Part shown: positions 17,479-51,567 of the stretch, in pieces
How positions within the stretch are numbered: position 1 is the first letter of the stretch
How the letters are laid out: each line of letters starts with the position of its first letter
IMG/VR virus record: IMGVR_UViG_3300034082_002361
Span: 1-52,456 of that record
Source of the DNA: a virus
Taxonomy: Duplodnaviria; Caudoviricetes
Length of the DNA: 52,456 bases
Reading direction: 5' to 3' (one strand)
The notes under the pieces: generated by a model
Databases searched by the model: none
The model's input: only the letters and a program-made list of their open reading frames with translations
What the model was told of the DNA's origin: nothing
Translations under genes and position numbers: made by a program

Positions 17479-18177
17479 ATGATCACTCCAAGATTTAACT
17501 ACGTTCCACTAGCAAGAGAAACACTAGAGGGCAAGCGTCATTACGCACTGCCTGATGGTAGCCGTGTGCCCAGTGTCACAACCATATTAGAAAAAACCAA
17601 ACCTGCAGAAGCGCGGCAGGCACTACAAGAGTGGCGCAATAGAGTGGGTACAGAACGTGCCCAGCAGATTACCACAGAAGCTGCCAATCGTGGAACACGC
17701 ATGCACACCTATCTTGAGCGTTATGTGAAAAATGATGACATAGGTGATTTTCCTAGTAACCCATTTGCACAACCTTCGTGGTTCATGGCAGCAAAAGTGA
17801 TACTAGAGGGGCTACACCATGCTGATGAATTTTGGGGTAGCGAAGTACCGTTGTATTACAGTGGGCTATATGCCGGCACTACCGACCTAGTGGGCACCTG
17901 GAAGGGACAACCTGCTATTATGGATTTTAAACAAAGTAACAAGGTCAAGAAGCGTGAATGGATTGACGATTACTTTATACAGTTGGCTGCATATGCAGCA
18001 GCACACAACGAAACACATGGTACACAAATTCGTACAGGGGTAGTGTTAATGTGTGTGAAGCCAGCAACAGAACACGATGATCCAGTGTACCAAGAATTTG
18101 TACTAGAACCTAAAGATTTTGATCACTGGCAAGATCAATGGATGCGTAGAGTAGAACTATACTATCAAACAGCATGA
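17479..18177 (+). CDS. PD-(D/E)XK exonuclease
   Basis: PSVTTIL, RGTRMH, AGTTDL, MDFKQS, QLAAYA. Confidence 0.85.
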   Translation: MITPRFNYVPLARETLEGKRHYALPDGSRVPSVTTILEKTKPAEARQALQEWRNRVGTERAQQITTEAANRGTRMHTYLERYVKNDDIGDFPSNPFAQPSWFMAAKVILEGLHHADEFWGSEVPLYYSGLYAGTTDLVGTWKGQPAIMDFKQSNKVKKREWIDDYFIQLAAYAAAHNETHGTQIRTGVVLMCVKPATEHDDPVYQEFVLEPKDFDHWQDQWMRRVELYYQTA

Positions 18178-19358
18178 AAACAAAGTTAACCGAACTGGGT
18201 GCAAATGGTAGCTTTTGTATATTGCCATTCATACATCAGGAAAAAAAATTTAACGGAACTTACCATGTGTGTTGTTATGGCGATCAATTGCAGTCTGATA
18301 ATCCTGCAGATGACTCGTTGGCCAGTTTTAATTCTGATAAAATCAACAGGATCAGATCTGACATGTTGTCTGGCACAAAGCCGGCTGACTGCAATTCCTG
18401 TTATCAACAGGAACACAACAACATTTATAGTCCCAGGCTAAGAGAAAATCACACCTGGACCAATTGGGAATCTACACATACCGCAGTAGAAAAATGCTTT
18501 GATGATTTCACCCATAAAAATACCATCAAACCTATCAGTTATGACCTGAGATACAGCAATACCTGCACTTTAAAGTGCCGTATGTGCAACAGTTCCAGTA
18601 GTAGTGCATTAAATGCAGAATACAAAAAGATACAACATCAATGGCCAGAAAAGTTTTGGACCATTGACAATCCACGAATCAATCATGAAGTTGAATTGCA
18701 TAGTGATGTACAAAAAATATATCTTGCTGGTGGGGAACCACTGGTAGAGCCATTGAATTTAGAATTGCTAGACAAAGTGGCACATCATAATCCAAATTTG
18801 GTTATTCTCATTAACACAAGTTTAAATCATCTAAGTGAAAAATTTGTAACGGTATTAAACAAATTCAAATACTTGACATTGGTAGTGTCAATTGATGGAA
18901 CCCATCAAATCAACGACTATGTACGCAACGGATCAAACTTTGATACAGTGATTAAAAATATTCGTAGCATGGCACACCATGACATGATATTCTCCACATG
19001 TGTGAGCATATACAACGTGTTCAATGTTAAACAATTAGTTACTTTTATTAACAAAGAGTTTCCTAATAGTGGTCATGGCATACACCTGGTCAATGATATT
19101 CCCGAAGTGTTTGTTGACAATGTGCCGCCAGAGCTCAGACCAGGCCTGATTCAGCAATTAGAAACTTGTCTATTGGAGATTTCAGATTTTTCGGCACAAG
19201 GAATTCACAATATAATTACTACATTAAAACAAAATAATTTTGATCACAATCGTTTTAATGATTTTATCAAATATACTAAAATTTTGGATGAATCGCGCGG
19301 CGAATCAATTATCAATATGGTTCCGGAGTTAGCTAAGTATTTCAATGAACAAAGTTAA
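18174..19358 (+). CDS. Radical SAM protein with N-terminal Cys-rich (SPASM/twitch-like) domain
   Basis: CTLKCRMC (CxxxCxxC), AGGEP, SIDG; extra Cys in FCILP, CC and CNSC. Confidence 0.9.
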   Translation: MKTKLTELGANGSFCILPFIHQEKKFNGTYHVCCYGDQLQSDNPADDSLASFNSDKINRIRSDMLSGTKPADCNSCYQQEHNNIYSPRLRENHTWTNWESTHTAVEKCFDDFTHKNTIKPISYDLRYSNTCTLKCRMCNSSSSSALNAEYKKIQHQWPEKFWTIDNPRINHEVELHSDVQKIYLAGGEPLVEPLNLELLDKVAHHNPNLVILINTSLNHLSEKFVTVLNKFKYLTLVVSIDGTHQINDYVRNGSNFDTVIKNIRSMAHHDMIFSTCVSIYNVFNVKQLVTFINKEFPNSGHGIHLVNDIPEVFVDNVPPELRPGLIQQLETCLLEISDFSAQGIHNIITTLKQNNFDHNRFNDFIKYTKILDESRGESIINMVPELAKYFNEQS

Positions 19359-31243: not shown

Positions 31244-32542
31244 ATGATTATTCCATACTCTAATACGTTTGATAAAACTACGGACAGGCACAAATGGGCA
31301 AATGATAACCAACATATTTGTTTATTGCCGTATACCAGCCTGCAATATTTTCATTCATCAAAAACAGTGAGTCCGTGTTGCAACCTAGAAAAACCCAAGT
31401 TGGGGGATTTTTTAACACCCATACACAAACTTAAACAAGCAATAGAATCTGGCAACACTTACGACAATTGTAAAGCTTGTTATCAATGTGAAGATGCAGG
31501 CAAGATCAGCGAAAGAACTAGGTATTTGATTGAATTAAACGACCAGCAGCTGGATAACTTAATTCATAAACAGAAAATTGATCAGGAATTCCATATTCAT
31601 TGTACATTGTCAAATCTTTGTAATATGGCCTGCCGTAGTTGTAATTCTACCACCAGTAGTTTATTTTCCAAAATTGACATTGGTTACGAAATATTAGTAG
31701 ATACCATGTCTGATAATACAGCGTATTGGCAATCCCTTCTTGACAGCATTTCTCGAGAAACCCAAATTCACGACTCTGTAAATCTAGTTATATCAGGTGG
31801 CGAAGGAATGGTACAATCTGATTTTCATAAAATTGTATCTTGGTTGATTGGGACTGGCATTAGCAAGCAGATTACCTTGACAATTAATACCAATGGATCA
31901 ATTGACGATGATCGGTTGTTTACGGATCTCTGCAGCAATTTTAAAAGAGTGTCGTTGGCTATCAGCGTTGACAGCATATATGAAAATTATCATTATGTAA
32001 GGTGGCCTGCAAACTGGAACAAAATTCATAAAAATTTAAATTCTTTTGTGAGATATCAAAAGACTTTTGAAAATTTTAATTTTTTTCTAACACCAGTTTG
32101 GTCAATTAATAATATTTTTTATTTGCCAGCCTGGGTAAAGTTTTTTGAATCTTTTGCTGCCGAGCACAAAATAGACATCACCGCATACGATACGCCACTG
32201 TGGCAACCTGAGTGGCTAGATGTTCAAAATTTGCCAGTGTACATTAAACACATTCTACTAGAAAAAATTTCTCTAGTATTATCTAATCAATGGCTAATGC
32301 AGAACAAAACCTTTCACGCCAATATCACAAATCTAGTAAACTTATGTATGCAACCAACTACCAATCAATCACTGGTACATTGGAAGGAATATCTGACCTA
32401 TAGTGCCAAATGGGATGTGCGTACCAATACCAATCTAGCAGAGCACAATGTGTTATTATATAATATTATGAATCAACAAGATAAAGATTTATTTCTATCG
32501 CTCAAAAATCATGCCAAGTCAAGATACGCATTTGTTAGTTAA
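31244..32542 (+). CDS. Radical SAM protein with N-terminal Cys-rich domain
   Basis: CNMACRSC, SGGEG, NTNG, SVDS..YVRWP; same architecture as 18174-19358. Confidence 0.9.
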   Translation: MIIPYSNTFDKTTDRHKWANDNQHICLLPYTSLQYFHSSKTVSPCCNLEKPKLGDFLTPIHKLKQAIESGNTYDNCKACYQCEDAGKISERTRYLIELNDQQLDNLIHKQKIDQEFHIHCTLSNLCNMACRSCNSTTSSLFSKIDIGYEILVDTMSDNTAYWQSLLDSISRETQIHDSVNLVISGGEGMVQSDFHKIVSWLIGTGISKQITLTINTNGSIDDDRLFTDLCSNFKRVSLAISVDSIYENYHYVRWPANWNKIHKNLNSFVRYQKTFENFNFFLTPVWSINNIFYLPAWVKFFESFAAEHKIDITAYDTPLWQPEWLDVQNLPVYIKHILLEKISLVLSNQWLMQNKTFHANITNLVNLCMQPTTNQSLVHWKEYLTYSAKWDVRTNTNLAEHNVLLYNIMNQQDKDLFLSLKNHAKSRYAFVS

Positions 32543-34550
32543 ACCAGGATCCGTGTCCTTGCCAAACTAGATCAATGTTGTAGTCTGATCTGACATCGGA
32601 CTCTGGCCACCACGGTGCATGTGGGTTGTCTGGGCAGGTAAATTTTACTACACAATTGGCTGTCCATTGCCCGTCATTGTTAATTTTAAAATTATATGTG
32701 GCGGCAAATTGATCAGCCAACCTATTTCCGTATTCGTTTAGGTCCCATTCGGGATCAAAAGTCACAGTCATTTCCATGGCTTTTTTGGCTCTGGATCTCC
32801 ATAAAGTACGAATTAATGGCCAAACTTCGTTGACCACAGTCTTAAGAAATACACAATCTAGTGTAGCATCTTTAATGATCTCATAATCAAATTCTTCATA
32901 CGGGATATCTAGATATTGGCCAATGACTGATATATTAGTTTCAAATTTTACATCATAGGTCTTGCTTAACCGAGAATTTTTATCGCCATCAAAATGAAAG
33001 CCCGGCATCTGTTCAATAAAAATATTAAAACTTTTGAATCGTATCAACCTATGAATTTTGGTATTGCCCAGGTCCTTGGTGGCCCAGCCCATGCAGAAAT
33101 ATTTTGGATGTACATTGTAAAAGTCAGGGTCGTCCTGCACTCGTCCAGGACCAATATTCATTGTACCACGGGCCATTGACGTTAGGTTACAGTTTTGTAT
33201 GCGCCAGGCCAGTGTCATTGTTTTGGCAAAGTCCACGGATTCTTCGTTGAGATAGCACAGCATCCAGTTGGTCTGAGCACCAATGTGTACTGACGCACCG
33301 TCGCGCAAGTTCTTTTCCACTTCAGCTATGGTTACGTTTTTACGCATGGCATCAAGCACTCGCTGGCTTCCACTCTCTATTCCGTAGTTCAATGCCATGC
33401 AACCACTGGCAGCCAGATCTTTGTAGTACTCTAGGTCCATGCGCTCGTCGCAGCGAGCATACCCCTCCCACTTGATCTTTAGCCCACGTTCAACCACACC
33501 CAGTGCAAATGCACGAAGTTCGTTGATGTTTCCGTTTACCAAGCTGTCAATAAACCAAAACACGTTGGTGCCATAGGTACGGTATTGATGTTCGACTTCT
33601 TCTAGTATAAACGGCGCCTGTCTACTGCGATACTTCCAGTAGTGTGTTTCCTGACAGAATGTGCATTTGGCCACACAACCACGACTCAGTTCTGAACTGA
33701 TGGCATTGGGTATCATGTAAGCATTGACGTCAAGATCTGAATAGTCCGGAAACGGCAGCTGATCTAGGTTGATCCTTTTTGTTTTGTCTGCGTTGTATTG
33801 ATATTCAGTCAATGGGATTCCATTTTCAATATCGTCTAATAATTGCAGCAGCAATTCCTCACCTTCACCTTTGACCACATGATCAAACTCAGGAAACGGC
33901 TCAGGGTTCCACTGGATATGTGATCCGCCGGCAATAATTTTTGTATTGGGTAAACGTTCTCTAATTTTTCTTGCCAGCCAAAGAGTAGGAAACACGTTGG
34001 TGTAGTACAAACTGAAACCCACAACGTCTGGCTTGAGCTTGATTATTTTTTCAAGGTATTCTTCAAGCACAGGCTCCACATGCCGACTCAGTCTGCGTTC
34101 GTACATGTCGTCAAGCCAAAGATAGTCCCTGGACCCATGTCCTTCATAAGGATCTTCGTCTATTACCTTTTTGAGTTTGTGCCAGGTATCCACGTTCCAA
34201 TCAAACACACTAGTCCGATATCCTGCTGCTCTAGTGACAGCAGCCAATCTTGCAATATTGTACGGAGCAAAGAACACTGCCCATTTGGGCATGAGAATCA
34301 ATGCAATGTGTGTGTGCCGGGTGACATTTTCAATTTTGACCACGGACAAGTTCTTTTGTGCAGCAGGCATGGCATATTTGAGCATGCCTTTGGCAGTGGC
34401 CAGATATTTGTCTTCGGGCATGTCAGGACTGTTAAATTCTTGGTGTAACTCTGCCAACGATTTTGCCATACCGGAATCTACCGGATTGCGCAAGGTTTCT
34501 TGTATGTCTTTGTTTGTACGAATCTGAATAGGAATTATTTTGCCGCTCAT
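32535..34550 (-). CDS. Cobalamin(B12)-binding radical SAM enzyme
   Basis: PDVVGFSLY, IIAGGSH, GEGE, SRGCVAKCTFC, GIESGSQRVLDAMRK. Confidence 0.9.
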   Translation of the reverse strand: MSGKIIPIQIRTNKDIQETLRNPVDSGMAKSLAELHQEFNSPDMPEDKYLATAKGMLKYAMPAAQKNLSVVKIENVTRHTHIALILMPKWAVFFAPYNIARLAAVTRAAGYRTSVFDWNVDTWHKLKKVIDEDPYEGHGSRDYLWLDDMYERRLSRHVEPVLEEYLEKIIKLKPDVVGFSLYYTNVFPTLWLARKIRERLPNTKIIAGGSHIQWNPEPFPEFDHVVKGEGEELLLQLLDDIENGIPLTEYQYNADKTKRINLDQLPFPDYSDLDVNAYMIPNAISSELSRGCVAKCTFCQETHYWKYRSRQAPFILEEVEHQYRTYGTNVFWFIDSLVNGNINELRAFALGVVERGLKIKWEGYARCDERMDLEYYKDLAASGCMALNYGIESGSQRVLDAMRKNVTIAEVEKNLRDGASVHIGAQTNWMLCYLNEESVDFAKTMTLAWRIQNCNLTSMARGTMNIGPGRVQDDPDFYNVHPKYFCMGWATKDLGNTKIHRLIRFKSFNIFIEQMPGFHFDGDKNSRLSKTYDVKFETNISVIGQYLDIPYEEFDYEIIKDATLDCVFLKTVVNEVWPLIRTLWRSRAKKAMEMTVTFDPEWDLNEYGNRLADQFAATYNFKINNDGQWTANCVVKFTCPDNPHAPWWPESDVRSDYNIDLVWQGHGSWFN

Positions 34551-34576
34551 GCTGTTATTTAAGCAATATTCTCTGG

Positions 34577-34605
34577 TTGACTCAAAATGCTTATTTTGCT
34601 ACACT
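34577..34605 (+). promoter_or_regulatory. sigma70-type early promoter (probably leaderless)
   Basis: TTGACT-17 nt-TACACT; ATG 6 nt downstream. Confidence 0.75.
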
Positions 34606-34611
34606 TAGAGC

Positions 34612-34842
34612 ATGAAAAAACCCATGGTATTCTATCTCAAATGGCTTGCTACATTAGTAACCGCCGCTGGCGCTGTTTGCACCAGCATCAACATGTATCC
34701 TGAAGGGCCTGCCTTGCTGAATCTGGGGTCTTTTATCTGGCTGATTGTGTCCATTATTTGGCGTGAATGGAGTCTGATTGCAATTAATGCAATATTGCTG
34801 CTGATCTATTCTGTGGGATTGATTGTTAAATTAGCAACATAA
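34612..34842 (+). CDS. Small membrane protein
   Basis: 76 aa, three hydrophobic segments. Confidence 0.7.
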   Translation: MKKPMVFYLKWLATLVTAAGAVCTSINMYPEGPALLNLGSFIWLIVSIIWREWSLIAINAILLLIYSVGLIVKLAT

Positions 34843-34848
34843 AAACGG

Positions 34849-34877
34849 TAGACCAAAAATCGCCATTTTGCTATAAT
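34849..34877 (+). promoter_or_regulatory. sigma70-type early promoter
   Basis: TAGACC-17 nt-TATAAT; spacer AAAA...TTTTGC resembles the 34577 promoter. Confidence 0.75.
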
Positions 34878-34909
34878 GTATGTACAGTAAATAACAAGGA
34901 GCGTAACAA

Positions 34910-35161
34910 ATGACAGAATTCGAAAAAAACTGCTACGGTATGTCCGCAGACGCAATTCGTGAGCAGTACATGAACTGCTTCACAGCAAAGTTCACTGGTA
35001 TGGAGATGGTAGTGATGGGGATTCTGAGTGATTGTCAGGAAATGATATCCATGAATAACCCCAGCATCCCTTCACCCAACTCCAATGAGTATGTGCGTAA
35101 GCAGATGAACATTGCCAAGTTCATCCTGTCGGACATGATGGAAGCTCGGGAGGCAGCGTAA
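34910..35161 (+). CDS. Small early hypothetical protein
   Basis: AAGGAG SD; first gene of a coupled small-ORF operon. Confidence 0.75.
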   Translation: MTEFEKNCYGMSADAIREQYMNCFTAKFTGMEMVVMGILSDCQEMISMNNPSIPSPNSNEYVRKQMNIAKFILSDMMEAREAA

Positions 35162-35313
35162 TGGAAGATCAAACTTTAATTGATTGCCTGTACGAAGAAC
35201 TCGTCATGTTGGACGAGCAGGCTGGTTGCTTTGACGAAGTAACTAACCGTTTCATTGATGAGCAGCGTCGTAAACTTTTTAACCAGCTCGTAGAGCTAGA
35301 GGCAGCGCAATGA
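35161..35313 (+). CDS. 50-aa acidic protein (not in ORF track)
   Basis: MEDQTLIDCLYEELVMLDEQAGCFDEVTNRFIDEQRRKLFNQLVELEAAQ; TAATG and ATGA coupling at its two ends, GGAGG SD. Confidence 0.75.
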   Translation: MEDQTLIDCLYEELVMLDEQAGCFDEVTNRFIDEQRRKLFNQLVELEAAQ

Positions 35314-35492
35314 GTATTCAATATATCGCAGATGGTTACAACAAAGACAACCAGCGTGTGGTTCTTTGGAGAACTGGCAACTATCAATATCAGTTGGAAT
35401 CAGCAGGTACAAACTACGATTTTGAAGCAGAGTATTACGATGCCGTTGCTTTTTTTGAAAAACATGTTGTACAAATTACGGAGACAGCATAA
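35310..35492 (+). CDS. Small hypothetical protein
   Basis: 60 aa, coupled, GAGG SD. Confidence 0.7.
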   Translation: MSIQYIADGYNKDNQRVVLWRTGNYQYQLESAGTNYDFEAEYYDAVAFFEKHVVQITETA

Positions 35493-35653
35493 TGAGCCAG
35501 TTTAAAGAATTGTTCACTGAAATCAGTTGCATGGATTTCAACGGATACACAGTAGAGCAAATTGCAGACATGGTTGGACTCAGCCCATATCAGGTTGAAG
35601 CAGTACTTAACCAACTACCGTTTGCAGTTAACCAAGAAGCAGTAAATATCTAA
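35492..35653 (+). CDS. 53-aa helix-turn-helix-like protein (not in ORF track)
   Basis: MSQFKELFTEISCMDFNGYTVEQIADMVGLSPYQVEAVLNQLPFAVNQEAVNI; GGAG SD, TAATG-coupled. Confidence 0.7.
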   Translation: MSQFKELFTEISCMDFNGYTVEQIADMVGLSPYQVEAVLNQLPFAVNQEAVNI

Positions 35654-35675
35654 TTACGTTTAAGGAAATAGATCA

Positions 35676-35999
35676 GTGACTCCCAAACAAGAATTTATGT
35701 GGGACCATTTATGTAATAACTATCCCAAACTAACACACAAAATGGCTACTGAAATTGCTCAGTCTGATAAACGTTGGTTGCATAGGAAAGCTAATAAATT
35801 TCTAGCAGTAGTTAATACTTGGCCTATACAAGATGCTGTTGGTGCCGTGGCCACTTGGTTAACAATTTATAATATTCCACTTGTTCCAAGAAAATTATCA
35901 AATTTTGATGCATTTCACGAACGTTGTGGCGCTTATATTCATACGTGTAAAAACATAAAAAAATTTCCCATTATTACCGTTAACAAAGAAACGGCATAA
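35676..35999 (+). CDS. Hypothetical protein
   Basis: GTG start after AAGGA. Confidence 0.65.
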   Translation: MTPKQEFMWDHLCNNYPKLTHKMATEIAQSDKRWLHRKANKFLAVVNTWPIQDAVGAVATWLTIYNIPLVPRKLSNFDAFHERCGAYIHTCKNIKKFPIITVNKETA

Positions 36000-36007
36000 C
36001 TATTATT

Positions 36008-36157
36008 ATGAAAACGGTAAAACCTATTTTGGTACAGCGCACCCGAGCACATCGTGTGTTGTTTGAAACTGGAAGTCCGTTTCGGAGTCGTACAGTGCAA
36101 AACAAAACACGTTATCAGCGTAACCCCAAACACAAGGATCAACGGCATGACACCTGA
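36008..36157 (+). CDS. 49-aa basic ArfA-like protein (not in ORF track)
   Basis: MKTVKPILVQRTRAHRVLFETGSPFRSRTVQNKTRYQRNPKHKDQRHDT; FRxR...NK...YxRxxKH pattern of ArfA. Confidence 0.55.
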   Translation: MKTVKPILVQRTRAHRVLFETGSPFRSRTVQNKTRYQRNPKHKDQRHDT

Positions 36158-36326
36158 CTACAGACCACGTAATTCTGTACCCATGAGTTTTAACCGCAAA
36201 CGCCAAATCATTGGCAACATTGTAGAAGATTTACACGATCAATATTTTGACATGATCGAACGAGCATTGGCGCATAGCGACATGCAGCATGCCAAAGATG
36301 TGATCATGCATGTGAAGGCCTTGTGA
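36147..36326 (+). CDS. Small hypothetical protein
   Basis: ATG 36147 after AAGGA (MTPDYRPRNS); preferred to the track start 36054. Confidence 0.65.
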   Translation: MTPDYRPRNSVPMSFNRKRQIIGNIVEDLHDQYFDMIERALAHSDMQHAKDVIMHVKAL

Positions 36327-36619
36327 TGAACATTGAACAAACTGTAGAAGCAATTCTAGAAGAACGCATAAGTGTTGATCAGCTGGATGCAGAAACCATG
36401 GAAGAAGTGGTAGAATACTTGGCCGAAGCAGCAGATGCCATGCTTGATGGCCCGCATGACGATGCTGCTCGTGCCATGTTGGATATTTTGGATCTGATCG
36501 GCGATGAAGCCGAGCATCGTATCATTGCCATGGACACCGCAGATTTTGAATTTGAAATTGAAGCCAGCGTCGAGCGTGGTAACACCTATTTTGAATTGGC
36601 AGAATACGTGGTACAATAA
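36323..36619 (+). CDS. Very acidic small protein
   Basis: 98 aa, D/E-rich, coupled. Confidence 0.7.
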   Translation: MMNIEQTVEAILEERISVDQLDAETMEEVVEYLAEAADAMLDGPHDDAARAMLDILDLIGDEAEHRIIAMDTADFEFEIEASVERGNTYFELAEYVVQ

Positions 36620-36642
36620 ATTTGTGTGCAAGGTAGTACTCT

Positions 36643-36668
36643 AAACCCGCCTCAGCGGGTTTCTTTTT
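36643..36668 (+). terminator. Rho-independent terminator ending the early small-gene operon
   Basis: AAACCCGC-CTCA-GCGGGTTT followed by CTTTTT. Confidence 0.9.
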
Positions 36669-36681
36669 GCTAAATACTCGT

Positions 36682-36975
36682 ATGAAGATCACAGATATTA
36701 TCCGCAGCGTACTGGACATTGTTGACGGGGCACAAGCACCTGCAGAGCCCGTGGTTGCTATCAAAATCACTGCCGAGCCCGAAGCCGACCTAATGGACAT
36801 GCAACGTCTTGCTGGCATACTGGCAGACCCAGAATACGCAAATGAACCCAATACAGTTGTTGCTCCAGTTGCAGCAGCATTTCCTGCAGGTGATGATGTA
36901 CATCACAGTAAGAATCCCGCAGATATTAGAACCAATGCACCCAGCATGTACCCAAGCTGGCAAGCTACCAAATAA
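36682..36975 (+). CDS. Hypothetical late protein (probably leaderless)
   Basis: TAAATA 36671-36676, 5 nt, ATG (MKITDIIRS). Confidence 0.7.
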   Translation: MKITDIIRSVLDIVDGAQAPAEPVVAIKITAEPEADLMDMQRLAGILADPEYANEPNTVVAPVAAAFPAGDDVHHSKNPADIRTNAPSMYPSWQATK

Positions 36976-36984
36976 GGAAAACCA

Positions 36985-37278
36985 ATGAGCCAATATTACA
37001 CAATACAAACAATTGACGGCGCAGATACCGCAAAATATCAAACACTACAAACCACTACTAGTGCTACTGTCAGTTCGGTGTTTACTTCTAGACGCATTTT
37101 AATTACCACAGGCAATCTAGCCCAGAGTGTGCAATTTGGTACAGCACCCAGCGTAACTACCAGCAATGGATTTGTTATACCAAGTAATACCACAATGATC
37201 TTTAATTTCAAAGCTGGTAACAAGGTTGCTGCTGCCAGTACTGCTGCTAGTCAGATGAGCATACTTGATCTAGACTAA
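36985..37278 (+). CDS. Small S/T-rich probable virion protein
   Basis: AAGGA SD; beta-rich composition. Confidence 0.65.
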   Translation: MSQYYTIQTIDGADTAKYQTLQTTTSATVSSVFTSRRILITTGNLAQSVQFGTAPSVTTSNGFVIPSNTTMIFNFKAGNKVAAASTAASQMSILDLD

Positions 37279-37280
37279 GA

Positions 37281-38465
37281 ATGGGATATACCCCACCATC
37301 ACCGGGTAGAGGCGACCGTAGATTAAATACCACCAACTACGATCATCCTCAAGAAACCAATCTCCTTAATATCCATAAGGCCATGGCCTACAATGATGCT
37401 GGAGAGCCTCACGTCCGTGTTAGTCTCGGCAGTGACAACATTACTATTACAGGTGATGTAAATCTACTTGATACGGTCACAGTTACATCAACTCCTGAAG
37501 CTCCTGTCCACACGCATATAACAGAAGTTGGTACCAGCGGCATACTTGCTGTACCTTATGTGCCTATTCAAGGCACAGTCAGCATTGGCTCAGACGGCAC
37601 AGTTAGTTTATCGGCAAACACATTGTCAGCATTGGAAAACACCACTGTTACTATTAGTGGAACTCCTACCGTCAACATCGGCACTATGCCTGAAGTAGAG
37701 ATTAAAAACGACGCAGGCAATCCAATAACAGTTACAGGCAGTGTGACTACTATTGGTGGTAGTGCTCAAGGTAAACTATGGACCATGCAAGTAGCACAGG
37801 GATTGATTGCCGGACATACTGTAGAACAAGTCACAGGATACAATCCTGCTACATCAGCAGGTGATGCTGTATGGTCAGGTGGAACAGCATATCCGTGGAG
37901 TAGTTTTGTCACAGCACAAACTCTGTATCTAAAAAGTTCTACCAACAATGCAACTGACAGAAGTATGCCATTTCTTATTGACGGATTGGATTCTAGCTAT
38001 AATAATCAAACCGAAGTGGTGACACTAAATGCTTCGGACTCAAGAACAGCAGTCGCATCAACCAAACAATTCTTACGTATTCATAACATATCATGTAATA
38101 ACACAGAAACTAACGTGGGTGACATTCTTACAACTGTTACCTCAGGTAGCGGCACATTGGTTTCTAAAATATCAGCAGGTAGAGGCAGTGCTAGAGCAGG
38201 TGTGTATACCATACCCGCAGGTTATACTGGATACTTGTTCAAAGGTGATGCCAGCTCAACAGCGGCTACTGTGGTAAACTTTATGGCTCGTTATTTTGGT
38301 AAAGCATTTATGGTTGTTCACGTGGCCATTGTGGACAACAGCACTTACATCTACGATTTCCCATTCCCGATGCCATTGCCGGCAAAGACTGATGTGTATA
38401 CTACTATAGAAGCAGGGTCAGGTAAAACGGCTGTGAACTACGAGATACTGTTAGTAGCTAACTAA
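37281..38465 (+). CDS. Probable virion structural protein
   Basis: T/V/G/S-rich, YTIPAGYTGYL motif, in late operon. Confidence 0.6.
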   Translation: MGYTPPSPGRGDRRLNTTNYDHPQETNLLNIHKAMAYNDAGEPHVRVSLGSDNITITGDVNLLDTVTVTSTPEAPVHTHITEVGTSGILAVPYVPIQGTVSIGSDGTVSLSANTLSALENTTVTISGTPTVNIGTMPEVEIKNDAGNPITVTGSVTTIGGSAQGKLWTMQVAQGLIAGHTVEQVTGYNPATSAGDAVWSGGTAYPWSSFVTAQTLYLKSSTNNATDRSMPFLIDGLDSSYNNQTEVVTLNASDSRTAVASTKQFLRIHNISCNNTETNVGDILTTVTSGSGTLVSKISAGRGSARAGVYTIPAGYTGYLFKGDASSTAATVVNFMARYFGKAFMVVHVAIVDNSTYIYDFPFPMPLPAKTDVYTTIEAGSGKTAVNYEILLVAN

Positions 38466-38466
38466 T

Positions 38467-38772
38467 ATGAGTTTCCTAGTAGCCAACCTTCCACCCGTAC
38501 ATTGCTTTGTGCGTAGAGAATTCCTCTATGATTTTAAAAGCGGCCACGGTGAGTACGAGCCCTGCATATGGGTATCAATCAAAAGCCTACGCAGCCAAGC
38601 ATTTCGTATAGAAGCCTACTTGCCACGCTATGGTGCCTTATATGAAATAGACTTTAGCCAACAGTTGGGCAGAACTATAGCGGGTGTGTCAGACATATGG
38701 TGTTTGGCAGCGTTAGCCACTACCAACAACGATGATGCTGTGGGCATTGTAAACTGGCAGGAGCATAATTAA
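38467..38772 (+). pseudogene. Apparently chimeric ORF (N-terminus of one phage gene joined to C-terminus of another)
   Basis: Character changes abruptly after ...RYGALY (about 38645) into EIDFSQQLGRTIAGVSDIW...WQEHN. Confidence 0.5.
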
Positions 38773-41005: not shown

Positions 41006-41064
41006 GTGTGGGATGCTTCGGGCTCATACTAACAACTTGCTTAATTTAAGGAGAAATTAACATG
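41006..41064 (+). promoter_or_regulatory. ROSE-like RNA thermometer in dnaK 5'UTR
   Basis: 5' cUUCGg-capped hairpin 41006-41029; CUU-G-CUUA (41036-41043) pairs with UAAG-GAG (41047-41053) with a bulged G. Confidence 0.65.
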
Positions 41065-42948
41065 TCTAACCGTATTATTGGCATAGATCTCGGAACTACA
41101 AATAGCTGCGTAGCAGTAATCGAAAATGGCCAACCTAAAGTAATTGAAAATTCAGAAGGCGCACGTACTACGCCCAGCGTGGTTGCCTACACTGCAGAAG
41201 AAATTATTGTCGGCGCTGGTGCAAAGCGTCAAGCAGTTACAAATCCAAAAAGTACTATCTATGCTGCCAAGCGTCTAATTGGACGTAAATTCAAAGAAGA
41301 GGCAGTTCAAAAAGACATTGGCCTTATGCCTTATACCATTATTGAAAGTAGTAATGGTGATGCATGGGTCTCAACCGGGGACAAAGAACTGGCCCCGCCC
41401 CAGATCTCAGCAGAAGTCATTCGTAAAATGAAAAAGACTGCCGAGGACTATTTGGGACGTGAAGTAACACAGGCAGTTATCACTGTGCCTGCTTACTTCA
41501 ATGACAGTCAACGCCAAGCAACCAAAGATGCTGGCGCAATTGCAGGACTAGAAGTGCTGCGGATTATCAATGAGCCGACCGCAGCGGCCTTGGCATATGG
41601 AATCGATAAAAATGAAAAAGTTGATCGCAAGATCGCTGTGTACGATTTGGGTGGTGGTACCTTTGATGTTAGTATCATTGATATTGCTAACGTGGATGGT
41701 GATAAGCAATTTGAAGTACTTTCCACCAATGGTGATACATTCCTAGGTGGCGAAGACTTTGACCAACGCATTATGGATTACTTGATTGACCAGTTTAAAA
41801 AAGAAACTGGAGTTGATCTAGCCCTAGACGTTATGGCCCTGCAACGACTCAAAGATGCAGCAGAACGTACCAAGATTGAACTCAGCAGCAGCACACAAAC
41901 AGATGTAAACTTACCTTACATCACAGCAGATGCCACAGGTCCCAAGCACATGAACATCAAGTTGACCCGTTCCAAACTGGAAGGCCTGGTTGAAGAACTG
42001 ATTCAACGCAGTATTGAACCGTGCCGTGTGGCCATGCGTGATGCAGGTTGTGTGCCCGGCGACATTGATGAAGTTATCTTGGTAGGCGGTATGACACGCA
42101 TGCCCAAGGTACAGGAAGCAGTTGAACAATTATTTGGACGGGCACCACGACGTGATGTCAATCCTGATGAAGCAGTAGCGGTTGGCGCAGCAGTACAAGG
42201 TGCTGTGTTGGGTGGTAGCCGTAATGACGTACTACTCCTTGATGTAACCCCACTAAGCCTGGGAATCGAAACCATGGGCGGAGTGATGACCAAACTAATC
42301 CAAAAGAACACCACTATTCCTACCAAGCATAGTCAAGTGTTTTCCACAGCAGAAGATAACCAGCCTGCTGTGACAATCAAAGTTTGTCAAGGAGAACGTG
42401 AACTTGTGCAATATAACAAACTGTTAGGTGAATTCAACTTGGAAGGAATTGCACCTGCTCGACGCGGAACGCCGCAGATTGAAGTTTCGTTGGATGTTGA
42501 TGCCAATGGTATTCTCAAAGTAAGTGCTCGTGATAAAAGTACTGGCAAAGAAAACAAGATCACTATCAAATCAGATTCAGGTCTAAGCCAAGAGCAGATT
42601 GACGAAATGATTCGCGATGCTGAAGCCAATGCTGATGCAGACGCCAAACAGCGCGAATTGATTGAGGCACGTAATCAAGCAGATGCAATTATTCACAAAG
42701 TTAAAACTGATCTTGCCGAGGTTGACGGCCAACTTACCGAGGACCAGACGAAACAAATTAATGACAAAATAACGGAACTACAAGAGACGATTGCAGGCAC
42801 AGACAAGGAAGTGATCACTACCAAGATATCAGAATTGTTTGTGGCCGCCAATGCAATCAATGAAGCAAAAGCAGCAGCCACATCACAGTCTACTACGCCG
42901 GCAGCAGATGACACGGTGGTTGATGCTGAGTTTAAAGAAACAAAGTAA
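41062..42948 (+). CDS. dnaK: Hsp70 chaperone DnaK
   Basis: [35 protein letters not shown]-terminal DAEFKE. Confidence 0.98.
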
Positions 42949-42957
42949 AGCATATGC

Positions 42958-43029
42958 GGTGTAGATGCCCAGGTGGGGTCTACACCCATATAACGTCATA
43001 ACTTGCTTACATGAAAGGAGAAAACTATG
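42958..43029 (+). promoter_or_regulatory. ROSE-like RNA thermometer in hsp20 5'UTR
   Basis: Stable 5' hairpin GGTGTAGA/TCTACACC (42958-42986); CUU-G-CUU (43002-43008) pairs with SD AAGGAG (43015-43020) with a bulged G. Confidence 0.72.
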
Positions 43030-43464
43030 ACAACATATATTACAACCTTTGATTTACCTACTATCCATCGCCACGCTGTGGGATTTGATAGACTATTTAA
43101 CGAACTGGGACGCACTTTTGCCAACAGTAAGGTAGATGGTAATTACCCTCCGCACAACATTGTGCAAATTGATGAAACACATTATGCCATTCAATTGGCA
43201 GTGGCTGGGTTCGCTGAGGATGAACTTGATATTGAATTCAAGGACAATGTGCTCACTGTAAAAGGTGAACAGCATCAACAGGACGAATACACTTATCATT
43301 ATCGTGGTATCAGTTCTCGCGCATTTACTCGTGCATTTCCATTGGCTGAACACATGGAAGTCAAAGGTGCCACTGTGATAAACGGTATTTTGGCAGTCAG
43401 CATTGAGCACATTGTGCCCGACGAACAAAAACCCAAGAAAATTGCTATTACGTTTGCAAAGTAA
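43027..43464 (+). CDS. hsp20: Small heat-shock protein (IbpA-like)
   Basis: VGFDRLF, NYPPHNI, LAVAGF, RGISSRAFTRAF, NGIL, PKKIAI. Confidence 0.95.
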   Translation: MTTYITTFDLPTIHRHAVGFDRLFNELGRTFANSKVDGNYPPHNIVQIDETHYAIQLAVAGFAEDELDIEFKDNVLTVKGEQHQQDEYTYHYRGISSRAFTRAFPLAEHMEVKGATVINGILAVSIEHIVPDEQKPKKIAITFAK

Positions 43465-44313: not shown

Positions 44314-45156
44314 ATGGACTACAAAAGTGCCGGAGTAGATGTTGAATTAGCAGACCAATTGGTAAAGTATCTAGGTATGTCTGGGTACGGTGCTGTGATT
44401 GATCTTGGTGGTGTGAAAGTTGTGTTATCAACAGATGGAGTTGGCACCAAACTGCTGGTGGCAGAAGCACAGAACAAGTTTGATACCATTGGTATAGACT
44501 TGGTTGCCATGTGTACCAATGATGTATTGTGTCAAGGCGCCAGACCACATAGCTTTTTAGATTACTATGCAACTGGTAAGTTGGATTTAGCAAAAAGTAA
44601 AATTATCCTGGATGGTATCATACAAGGGTGTAAACTTGCTGGTTGCAAACTAGTGGGTGGTGAAACTGCAGAGATGCCCGGAGTATACAACGGTAGTCAA
44701 TTTGATCTAGCTGGCTTTTGCATGGGTGTGGTAGAAAAAGATTTACCCCAGTCAGTCAAGAGTGGTGATCTATTGGTGGGAATCCCCAGTAGTGGTCCAC
44801 ACAGTAATGGATTTAGTTTATTGCGTAAACTGTTACCAATTGACGAAATTCCGTTGACCCCTACCAGAATCTACACCAATGAGATCATGGACAATCTGGC
44901 CTATATCAAGGCCTGCAGTCATATCACTGGTGGCGGCATTCATGGCAATCTACCCAGAGTATTAAATGGACATGACTATAAATTGAATATTGACTTACCT
45001 GCTGACAGTTGGTGGCAAGACCTATTTGAACGTAGCCAGCTATCAAAACACGAATTTGAAAGCACATTCAATTGCGGATGGGGCATGATTTTGGTAGTTG
45101 ATGATATCAGTAACTTGAATATCAAAGATGCACAATTAATTGGTCAAGTACTTTAA
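44314..45156 (+). CDS. purM: Phosphoribosylformylglycinamidine cyclo-ligase (AIR synthetase)
   Basis: YKSAGVD, TDGVGTK, GGETAEMPG, SSGPHSNG, HITGGG, TFNCG.GM. Confidence 0.95.
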   Translation: MDYKSAGVDVELADQLVKYLGMSGYGAVIDLGGVKVVLSTDGVGTKLLVAEAQNKFDTIGIDLVAMCTNDVLCQGARPHSFLDYYATGKLDLAKSKIILDGIIQGCKLAGCKLVGGETAEMPGVYNGSQFDLAGFCMGVVEKDLPQSVKSGDLLVGIPSSGPHSNGFSLLRKLLPIDEIPLTPTRIYTNEIMDNLAYIKACSHITGGGIHGNLPRVLNGHDYKLNIDLPADSWWQDLFERSQLSKHEFESTFNCGWGMILVVDDISNLNIKDAQLIGQVL

Positions 45157-50340: not shown

Positions 50341-51567
50341 ATGAAAGTTGGTTTTATAGGCTTAGGTAAATTAGGATTATCATGCGCAGAAGTAATGCAA
50401 AAAGCATATGATGTAACTGGTTATGATATTTACCCAAGATCAAGTACACAAATTAAAATATCTGATAGTCTGCGCGGTGCAGTTGTTAACAAAGATATTA
50501 TTTTTGTAGCAGTACAAACTCCACACGATCCTGCATATGACGGCAGTCAACCAATTACTCATTTACCCAACAAAGACTTTGATTATTCTATAGTTAAAGA
50601 CGTGCTAAAACAAATTGATATTTGGGCCGGTCCTGAGCAACTAGTAGTTCTTATTAGTACTGTGCTGCCAGGCACGGTTCGTAGGGAACTGCGTGAGTGC
50701 TTGACACATGCACGTTTCATTTATAATCCGTACCTTATTGCCATGGGCAGTGTTGAATGGGACATGGTCAACCCTGAAATGGTCATAATTGGTACCAAGG
50801 ACGGTGACCAAACTGGTGATGCAAAGTTGCTCATTGATTTTTACCAGCCATTGATGGAAAATGATCCACGTTATGTTGTTGGTACCTGGGACGAAGCAGA
50901 GTCAATCAAGATATTTTATAACACATTTATTAGCACAAAAATTGCACTAGTCAACATGATTCAAGATGTAGCAATGAAGAACGGCAACATCAATGTAGAT
51001 GTGGTCACTGACGCATTGTCACACAGCACCACTCGTATCATGAGCAGCAAGTACATGACAGCAGGCATGGGTGATGCCGGACCCTGTCATCCTAGAGACA
51101 ACATTGCACTGCGTTGGTTGGCTGAAAACTTGAGTTTAGGGTATGATATATTTGATACCATTATGAATGCCAGGGAAGTACAAGCAAAAAATCTAGCACG
51201 TTTTTTATTTCAAAAACAAAAACAGTACAACTTGCCCATCTATATACTGGGCAAGTCATACAAACCTGATGTGGATATACTGGACGGAAGCTACAGTTTA
51301 CTAATTGGGCACTATTTAGAAACCATGCAGGCCAAGTTTTATTACATAGATCCATTAACTGGTGATGCGCCACCGTTTGACAACGTGCCGGTAATTGCTT
51401 TTTTAGCACACAACAGAAACATAACTTACGGATACACCGGAGAGCAACAGGAACAAGAACTATATGTTGAGCTTGATTCCGGCAGTGTAATTGTTGATCC
51501 TTGGAGACAATACACCACACAAAAAGATTATAAGGTGATACATTATGGCAACACACGACTCGTTTAA
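50341..51567 (+). CDS. UDP-glucose/GDP-mannose dehydrogenase family protein
   Basis: GLGKLG Rossmann motif, AVQTP, STVLPGT, AESIKIFYN, GDAGPCHPRD, GKSYKP. Confidence 0.88.
   Translation: MKVGFIGLGKLGLSCAEVMQKAYDVTGYDIYPRSSTQIKISDSLRGAVVNKDIIFVAVQTPHDPAYDGSQPITHLPNKDFDYSIVKDVLKQIDIWAGPEQLVVLISTVLPGTVRRELRECLTHARFIYNPYLIAMGSVEWDMVNPEMVIIGTKDGDQTGDAKLLIDFYQPLMENDPRYVVGTWDEAESIKIFYNTFISTKIALVNMIQDVAMKNGNINVDVVTDALSHSTTRIMSSKYMTAGMGDAGPCHPRDNIALRWLAENLSLGYDIFDTIMNAREVQAKNLARFLFQKQKQYNLPIYILGKSYKPDVDILDGSYSLLIGHYLETMQAKFYYIDPLTGDAPPFDNVPVIAFLAHNRNITYGYTGEQQEQELYVELDSGSVIVDPWRQYTTQKDYKVIHYGNTRLV

Follow-up and report, generated by a model that had tools for sequence, protein, structure and literature searches.

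The stretch of DNA considered here, 52,456 nt in length and called the window below, is the viral record IMGVR_UViG_3300034082_002361 of IMG/VR (Duplodnaviria; Caudoviricetes). The element in question is a short open reading frame (ORF) on the + strand, at 36008..36157, whose predicted product resembles the bacterial ribosome-rescue factor ArfA in several segments but has no counterpart of its KGKGS loop. The ORF belongs to a cluster of small genes arranged as follows.

34612..36619, + strand: small-gene cluster containing the ORF; most of its genes are syntenic in relatives (tblastn of 12 window proteins against 42 loci)
35492–35653 and 35676–35999, + strand: the two genes directly upstream of the ORF
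36008..36157, + strand: 49 codons plus stop (ATG 36008, TGA 36155–36157), encoding the putative loop-less ArfA-like peptide
36147..36326, + strand: small downstream gene, 59 amino acids from ATG 36147 or 47 amino acids from ATG 36183, with no function assigned
36643..36672, + strand: terminator-like hairpin of 8 pairs (5 G–C) with a T run behind it, at the end of the small-gene cluster (consensus scan only)

The product of the ORF, MKTVKPILVQRTRAHRVLFETGSPFRSRTVQNKTRYQRNPKHKDQRHDT, consists of 49 amino acids, 13 of which are lysine or arginine, and has a calculated isoelectric point (pI) of 11.8. The ORF starts 8 nt past the TAA (35997–35999) of the preceding gene, and a possible ATG of the next gene (36147) overlaps it by 11 nt. 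The original prediction, made from the letters alone, had described a basic 49-residue ORF in the gap between two genes, and this is what the locus holds. The stretch it quoted, PFRSRTVQNKTRYQRNPKH, corresponds to residues 24–42 of the ORF product, and the ArfA string set beside it is indeed residues 24–45 of E. coli K-12 ArfA (NC_000913.3).

Judged from its sequence, the ORF is a real gene under purifying selection. All 19 candidates from a search of 5.8 billion proteins are homologues of 48–52 amino acids, with 59–98% identity and E values from 1.2e-23 to 4.1e-10. This close clade has 20 invariant columns and the core R-A-H-R-V-L-F-E-x-G-S-P-x-x-x-R-T-V-x-N-K ... R-x-x-K-H. When a pattern built from the close-clade alignment was used to scan IMG/VR, 80 stretches matched and 42 were confirmed as viral loci; the ORF is complete in 40 of them (46–53 amino acids from the nearest ATG), each copy ending with a stop codon, and the remaining 2 are cut by contig ends. 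Over 21 core codons in 28 distinct DNA versions (378 pairs), the pooled ratio of nonsynonymous to synonymous polymorphism (pN/pS) is 0.206 (pS 0.651, pN 0.134). Serine codons alternate between AGT/AGC and TCA/TCG across homologous copies, and no stop interrupts the +1 frame in any of the 28 copies, whereas the best other frame (antisense −1) is open in 16 of 28. The prediction had been staked on the conservation of the ORF, and conserved it is.

The opposite view, that the ORF is a chance open frame in an intergenic gap, draws on the lack of a Shine–Dalgarno-like sequence within about 15 nt of the ATG and of any read-level sign of transcription or translation. It is hardly credible in view of the length and sequence kept in 42 viral loci and 19 protein clusters, the low pN/pS, and the synonymous switches between serine codon families, and as far as sequence analysis reaches it is already refuted. 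When longer, fused forms were sought with the close-clade alignment, none of 2,430 candidates reached E ≤ 0.001, which is weak evidence that the peptide stands alone rather than as part of a fusion.

The link to ArfA emerges at the level of the wider family. When 1.84 billion cluster representatives were searched exhaustively with a profile, 105 proteins of 35–91 amino acids were found at E ≤ 0.001 (4 of them at E ≤ 1e-10); together with the ORF they make up a family of 106 rows with the consensus K-x-R-A-H-x-V-L-F-x-x-D-x-P-F-K-x-K-x-V-x-x-K-x-x-Y-x-R-x-x-K-H. Searched against 177,635 distinct sequences of the PDB, the family profile gave six hits at E ≤ 10, and all six are ArfA constructs (best 5u4i_w, E 3.5e-4); the alignments span ArfA residues 1–50, with a single 3-residue gap opposite G-K-G. 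As an independent reference, an ArfA alignment was compiled from 33 distinct sequences of genomes with a Pfam ArfA score above the cut-off, from which all ArfA conservation counts given below are also taken. Comparison of the two alignments by hhalign yielded a probability of 94.5% (E 7.7e-8), with ORF residues 11–46 placed on ArfA 12–49; the family against E. coli ArfA alone gave 76%, and the 20 close homologues against the 33-sequence alignment gave 79% (E 1.6e-5; ORF 21–45 on ArfA 21–48). The controls are clean: the reversed ArfA alignment reached 0.9%, and 20 column shuffles remained at or below 0.6%, with scores of 5.7–10.8 vs 36.4 for the true pair. Nor is the family contaminated with canonical ArfA, as GKG is present in 1 of the 106 rows; removal of the most ArfA-like rows leaves hhalign probabilities of 92.4% (86 rows), 91.1% (74 rows), and 87.9% (58 rows).

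Compared singly with Pfam at E ≤ 1, 51 of the 106 family members match the domain of unknown function DUF7230 (best 1.8e-8) and 14 match ArfA (best 3.7e-4). A similar mixture is found among the 30 nearest clusters of a language-model protein atlas, of which 21 are unnamed, 8 are partly DUF7230 (10% of members), and 1 is partly ArfA (23% of members). In an E. coli genome (18 candidates scored), the sole match of the DUF7230 model at E ≤ 1 falls within arfA and agrees with it in strand and frame, although it is weak (12.6 bits, E 0.95). On these profile comparisons, the ORF family is homologous to ArfA over ArfA residues of about 12–49. Thus, the ArfA profile comparison proposed at the outset came out in two parts: the family profile reaches ArfA with clean controls, whereas by HMMER neither the ORF alone nor the 20 close homologues do so. 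Likewise, the description of the product as a short ArfA-like peptide devoid of the KGKGS loop holds as to homology, but several key residues of ArfA are changed.

Searches with the single sequence gave little. NCBIfam has no family for the ORF, and PHROGs offers only weak unnamed ones (best E 0.0082). The best Pfam match is DUF7230 (PF23876) at 16 bits and E 0.013, over positions 16–37 of the 42 in the model, and it does not reach the cut-off of 27 bits; in a six-frame search of the record the same model gives 15.2 bits, also below the cut-off. Among the 20 close homologues, 9 match DUF7230 at E ≤ 10 (best 0.0012). Neither blastn of 34500–38500 nor tblastn of the ORF found a match among 50,697 phage records, and the same is true for tblastn with another member of the family (P0091). 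The AF2 monomer model is an extended chain with one short helix (residues 16–19; pLDDT 79.8, pTM 0.27), and since it has this form, the absence of Foldseek matches in the PDB (0 found) is uninformative. In complex prediction with E. coli release factor 2 (RF2) and the family alignment, the scores were 0.08 and 0.02 vs a mark of 0.32, without controls; they weigh neither way because ArfA and RF2 bind the ribosome independently (PMC8874680).

For a residue-by-residue comparison, the ORF can be divided into the following segments.

36044..36076, + strand: residues 13–23 (RAHRVLFETGS), aligned by hhalign to the ArfA helix region N14–P23
36077..36097, + strand: residues 24–30 (PFRSRTV), aligned to ArfA L24–E30, which in ArfA comprises F25 and the strand pairing with the domain II/IV sheet of RF2
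36098..36142, + strand: residues 31–45, basic tail aligned to the mRNA-tunnel segment 31–48 of ArfA
36128..36133, + strand: K41–H42, aligned to ArfA K44–H45 (the "KH motif") and invariant in 20 of 20 close homologues

The first segment faces the ArfA helix, described as residues 15–24 (PMC8012679), and is well preserved in the family, with R13 in 100, H15 in 95, L18 in 103, and F19 in 98 of 106 members. The next one contains F25, which is phenylalanine in 93 and tyrosine in 12 of the 106. In ArfA, F25 makes hydrophobic contacts with strands β4 and β5 of RF2, Q27–E30 add a strand to the domain II/IV sheet, R26 holds A1492 in place, and Glu30 contacts G530 (PMC8012679, PMC8874680). The ORF keeps F25, R26, and R28, and a lysine or arginine occupies position 26 in 92 and position 28 in 96 of the 106 members; residues 27–30 read S-R-T-V, with T-V at 29–30 vs V-E in ArfA.

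In the tail, a 3-residue gap opposite ArfA G35-K36-G37 falls between T34 (36107–36109) and R35 (36110–36112); it recurs in every alignment of the ORF or its family with ArfA, so that the missing KGKGS loop had been noticed correctly. The family retains Y36, R38, K41, and H42 in 93, 106, 103, and 96 of 106 members, and the corresponding ArfA positions are kept in 31, 33, 28, and 24 of 33 sequences, the first two being Y39 (31/33) and R41 (33/33). Residues 31–48 of ArfA lie in the mRNA tunnel, and ArfA truncated at N47 is active while ArfA truncated after M40 is not (PMC5378476); the ORF extends 5 residues beyond the equivalent of Asn47, the shortest active truncation. The KH motif, which BrfA has as well, is bound in a pocket of the mRNA entry channel (PMC8012679). 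In sum, the conserved columns of the aligned family coincide with the functional ArfA residues F25, R26, R28, Y39, R41, and K44–H45.

With regard to regulation, the ORF ends with a true stop codon and has no hydrophobic C-terminal tail. No terminator-like site was found inside it by the consensus scan, and the RNA fold of 35990–36200 does not stand out from shuffled sequence (z = −0.58). In bacteria, by contrast, arfA mRNA is cut or terminated within the coding region, giving a non-stop mRNA, and ArfA accumulates only when transfer-messenger RNA (tmRNA) is limiting (PMC8874680). This non-stop design, with an RNase III site or terminator inside the gene and a hydrophobic tail that can be dispensed with, is not seen in the ORF. 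Since the stop codon is genuine and both the internal hairpin and the hydrophobic tail are missing, the peptide would be made whenever the cluster is transcribed, outside tmRNA-dependent control, and the earlier suggestion of a constitutively stable form fits the sequence in these respects.

Little can be said about transcription itself. In the region, promoter-like sites are not above chance (7 found vs 7.8 expected), and the term "early operon," used initially for the cluster, is a guess. A σ70-like site, TTAACA-18-TATTAT, was considered as the ORF promoter and rejected: it ends at 36009, inside the start codon, and so cannot serve the ORF. Conserved bases upstream of the ATG were likewise rejected as a promoter, since in relatives they belong to the preceding gene (its 3′ end with the stop codon). 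Three metatranscriptome runs hold 7–11% of the sampled words of the stretch. Contigs from one RNA-library run (X22), 99–100% alike, cover neighboring genes and not the ORF. One contig of another run (X24; 1,687 nt) covers 35658–36107, including most of the ORF; at about 90% alike it comes from a relative, and as an RNA-library contig it is not proof of transcription. In the same X24 contig, the 86 bases following ORF codon 34 (window 36107 to 36194) are replaced by 315 other letters; relatives vary at this junction between the 3′ end of the ORF and the beginning of the following gene, where gene spacing differs as well.

Taken together, these data suggest that the phage carries, in the ORF, a remote and shortened homologue of ArfA, for which we infer ribosome binding, release-factor recruitment, and peptide release. 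The reading we prefer, to which we give an even chance, is that of a constitutively made ArfA-like factor that would bind the A site and the mRNA channel and recruit a host release factor. On a ribosome at the 3′ end of a broken mRNA, the basic half of the peptide (residues of about 31–45) would thread into the mRNA entry channel, left empty on the 30S subunit, with K41–H42 anchoring the tail and thereby sensing that the channel is empty. Residues 24–30 (P-F-R-S-R-T-V) would come to lie in the A site, with F25 and the short strand docking on a host class I release factor at its domain II/IV sheet. RF2 is the likeliest partner, and the recruited factor would then hydrolyze the peptidyl-tRNA without a stop codon. 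An RF-1 domain was found neither in a complete 354,959-bp relative nor in four related fragments, so the release activity would need a host factor. As transcription of the cluster would lead to peptide production outside tmRNA-dependent control, the phage could gain extra, unregulated ribosome-recycling capacity during infection. The purposes named in the original prediction, rescue of ribosomes stuck on host mRNA after its cleavage or defense against RNase toxins, are likewise conjectural.

A number of observations weigh against this reading. At the sequence level, Pfam ArfA (PF03889; gathering cut-off 25.5 bits) has no match at E ≤ 10 in either the ORF or the six-frame translation of the whole record, and in the PDB, at E ≤ 10, a profile restricted to the 20 close homologues does not retrieve any ArfA chain; since the close-clade profile misses ArfA, the link depends on intermediate sequences. 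A direct BLASTP comparison of ORF residues 25–44 with E. coli K-12 ArfA 25–47 gives 9 identities in 23 positions with one 3-residue gap, at an E value of 0.013 that applies to a single comparison. At the level of residues, Ala18 of ArfA (31/33) stands opposite Val17 of the ORF, which is β-branched like threonine, and the G530-contacting Glu30 is Val30. The KGKGS loop, whose K34, G35, K36, and G37 occur in 33/33 and S38 in 29/33 ArfA sequences, is absent in the ORF, and 105 of the 106 family members are without GKG. ArfA residues 1–11 are not alignable to the ORF, and the N-terminal half has a pI of 11.7 vs 6.70 for residues 1–25 of E. coli ArfA (Table 1 of PMC8874680). Finally, the contigs from RNA libraries do not, as they stand, demonstrate transcription of the ORF in its own phage.

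The changed residues bear on a possible, though unlikely, alternative, in which the peptide would be an ArfA-derived ribosome binder that does not trigger release and competes with tmRNA–SmpB and host ArfA for the empty A site and mRNA channel, perhaps holding RF2 closed as the ArfA mutant A18T does. This mutant binds and recruits RF2, but activation is blocked through steric hindrance (PMC8012679). At the position where the Ala18-to-Thr change abolishes activation, the family has valine in 62, alanine in 19, isoleucine in 13, and methionine in 4 of 106 members, and Val17 is invariant in the 20 close homologues. Moreover, the segment shared with ArfA (from residue 12 or 21 to 49) is the part responsible for ribosome binding and release-factor docking, while ArfA residues 1–11 are not alignable, the KGKGS loop is absent, and Glu30 is replaced. 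Because Ala18 and Glu30 are both replaced by valine and the loop is absent, the non-catalytic binder that the original prediction named as a fallback stays in play. Its consequence would not be rescue itself: fewer truncated products would be tagged, or host ribosome rescue would be blocked. On the other hand, the alignment near residue 17 carries modest confidence, and with alanine at position 17 in 19 and glutamate at position 30 in 29 of the 106 members, not all of the family looks "inactive-like." Three bona fide PF03889 members from other bacteria (L128–L130, 31–43 bits) also have short basic N-termini devoid of the enterobacterial N-terminal motif, so N-terminal divergence is not unusual among ArfA proteins. 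A rather improbable suggestion is that the peptide might act as a constitutively made, anti-rescue ArfA decoy on non-stop ribosomes, plugging the A site and the mRNA channel, possibly trapping closed RF2, and excluding tmRNA–SmpB and host ArfA; if so, ribosome quality control in the host could be switched off, or truncated phage products be spared from tagging.

It is quite improbable that the product is a small basic nucleic-acid-binding or ribosome-associated peptide with some other role, e.g., RNA or DNA binding or regulation of a neighboring gene, its likeness to ArfA being convergent or a remnant of common descent. A short and very basic (pI 11.8) peptide that belongs to no curated family, yields no Foldseek match, and has conserved neighbors that all lack an assigned function would be compatible with such a role. 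However, composition is insufficient to account for the likeness, since reversed and shuffled controls score 5.7–11.7 vs 36.4, and ArfA is the sole family found in the PDB, to the exclusion of BrfA and other basic ribosomal peptides. The conserved columns, furthermore, are those through which ArfA contacts RF2, the decoding center, and the mRNA channel.

As for the genomic setting, CheckV estimates the completeness of the 52,456-bp record at 14%. In the 5.8-billion-protein search, homologues of the ORF sit on contigs of up to 356 kb, and the complete 354,959-bp genome mentioned above, a more distant relative, has direct terminal repeats; the window is therefore a fragment of a giant (jumbo) phage. 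It encodes a primase, a DnaB-like helicase, both ribonucleotide reductase subunits, radical-SAM proteins, an endolysin, and structural proteins, and 97–100% of its sampled words are present in 21 lake-water DNA runs. ARAGORN found neither tRNA nor tmRNA in the window, and a tmRNA model gave only sub-threshold, tRNA-sized matches in five related records.

Within the small-gene cluster, tblastn detects the proteins of g34612 in 37, g34910, g35161, and g36147 in 32 each, and g36323 in 29 of the 42 loci. The immediate upstream neighbors of the ORF, g35492 and g35676, by comparison, are found in 0 of the 42, and this pair (35492–35999) appears to be a recent insertion in an otherwise syntenic cluster. 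It encodes a 53-residue protein with weak helix-turn-helix matches and a 107-residue protein with no family. The downstream gene (36147..36326), which matches no Pfam or PHROG family, directly follows the ORF in 32 of the 42 loci and is adjacent to it or overlaps it in relatives. The terminator-like hairpin at 36643..36672 is one of 4 such sites in a 3-kb region where 3.1 are expected. On the opposite strand, a large ORF of 671 amino acids (window 32535–34547, −) matches only an unnamed PHROG.

Further genes of the window, all on the + strand, deserve mention. A full-length DnaK (Hsp70) homologue is encoded at 41062–42945 (phrog_22485, E 5e-269), adjoined by a small heat-shock gene of the Hsp20 type (43027–43461). 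The phage DnaK is 66–67% identical to matches in records named after Acinetobacter, Salmonella, Pseudomonas, and Escherichia and about 55% identical to those of Staphylococcus, Enterococcus, and Listeria, a weak hint at a proteobacterial host. Two ORFs (18174–19355 and 31244–32539) match the radical-SAM family phrog_14086 (E 2e-22 and 2.2e-12). Genes of the auxiliary metabolic type encode a ferredoxin-like N-terminus (38467–38769; phrog_3704), a PurM-like phosphoribosylaminoimidazole synthetase (44314–45153; phrog_1207), and a UDP-glucose dehydrogenase (50341–51564; phrog_9148).

If the peptide proves active, the ArfA superfamily would gain a loop-less branch, DUF7230, an unannotated Pfam family, would be linked to ribosome rescue, and phages would be seen to bring their own unregulated rescue capacity. 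The loop-less family amounts to about a hundred clusters at 50% identity; in giant lake phages it is present as a gene with an ordinary stop codon. Both the missing loop and the valine at the position of Ala18 can be regarded as natural experiments on which elements of ArfA are needed.

The closest known system is ArfA itself (YhdL; PF03889), a small basic peptide, like the ORF product, from E. coli and other γ- and β-proteobacteria (PDB 5U4I, 5MDV, 5H5U, and 5MGP), which has been described as confined to some β- and γ-proteobacteria (PMC11633108, PMC8874680) and as being under tight control by way of its non-stop mRNA. Both share the hydrophobic motif A-x-x-[AV]-L-[LVF], F-[RK]-x-[RK]-V, a lysine, and Y-x-R-[K]-x-K-H, and the length of the ORF covers that of minimal active ArfA (residues 1–47). 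Unlike bacterial arfA, the ORF is phage-borne, has no RNase III or terminator hairpin within the gene, and stays below the Pfam cut-off.

As to DUF7230, the ORF matches the C-terminal Y-x-R-x-x-K-H half of the domain, whereas the N-terminal halves are unlike: bacterial members have R-N-P-V-A-x-x-A-x-x-F vs R-T-R-A-H-R-V-L-F in the clade of the window. DUF7230 was found in 6 of 300 sampled genomes of E. coli's class, none of them among the 4 with ArfA, and a literature search for "DUF7230" returned no paper mentioning it. One bacterial DUF7230 gene (48.2 bits; genome G033, L160 1447–1638) lies between a helix-turn-helix/Peptidase_M78 gene and a YefM–YoeB pair, its neighbors on L160 being at 361–1440, 1813–2151, and 2063–2401; YoeB is a ribosome-dependent nuclease that cleaves mRNA in the A site (PMC8874680). 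This is a single locus, and three other loci have unrelated neighbors.

Small rescue peptides that depend on release factors are also known in B. subtilis (BrfA) and Francisella (ArfT); like ArfA, they have basic C-terminal tails lying in the mRNA channel, and BrfA shares the KH motif (PMC8012679). The family profile did not find a BrfA chain in the PDB at E ≤ 10.

Phage-encoded ArfA has been reported before. Gene g10 of Citromicrobium phage vB_CbaS-RXM is mentioned as an ArfA gene (PMC8953757), as is gp30 of pelagiphage HTVC027P (PF03889; PMC12753301); the passages describing them mention no functional test. A tblastn search of the phage collection with E. coli ArfA gives 12 records. Three of them are Salmonella sequences with 94% identity, and among the remainder are Pseudomonas phage pf16, Pseudoalteromonas phage J2-1 (annotated as ArfA), and the 343.8-kb Ralstonia phage RsoM2USA. 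In the latter (MG752970.1; L166 1468–1656, + strand), an unannotated 62-codon ORF ending in VAKDLRDPSGKYRMRVAKKKKGKGSFRRGKKGKHDE is canonical ArfA-like with KGKGS and lies antisense to an annotated hypothetical gene, RsoM2USA_176. The ArfA genes of cultured phages, some of them large, are thus phage-encoded like the ORF, but they are detected by tblastn with E. coli ArfA, while the ORF finds none of them. In the two phage sequences compared, the loop is kept (KGRGS in RXM g10 and KGKGS in RsoM2USA), whereas the ORF is loop-less; a literature search on ArfA and phages returned nothing on a loop-less phage family. Canonical phage ArfA genes are, therefore, already annotated in a few cultured phages, and it is the loop-less form that is the new variant.

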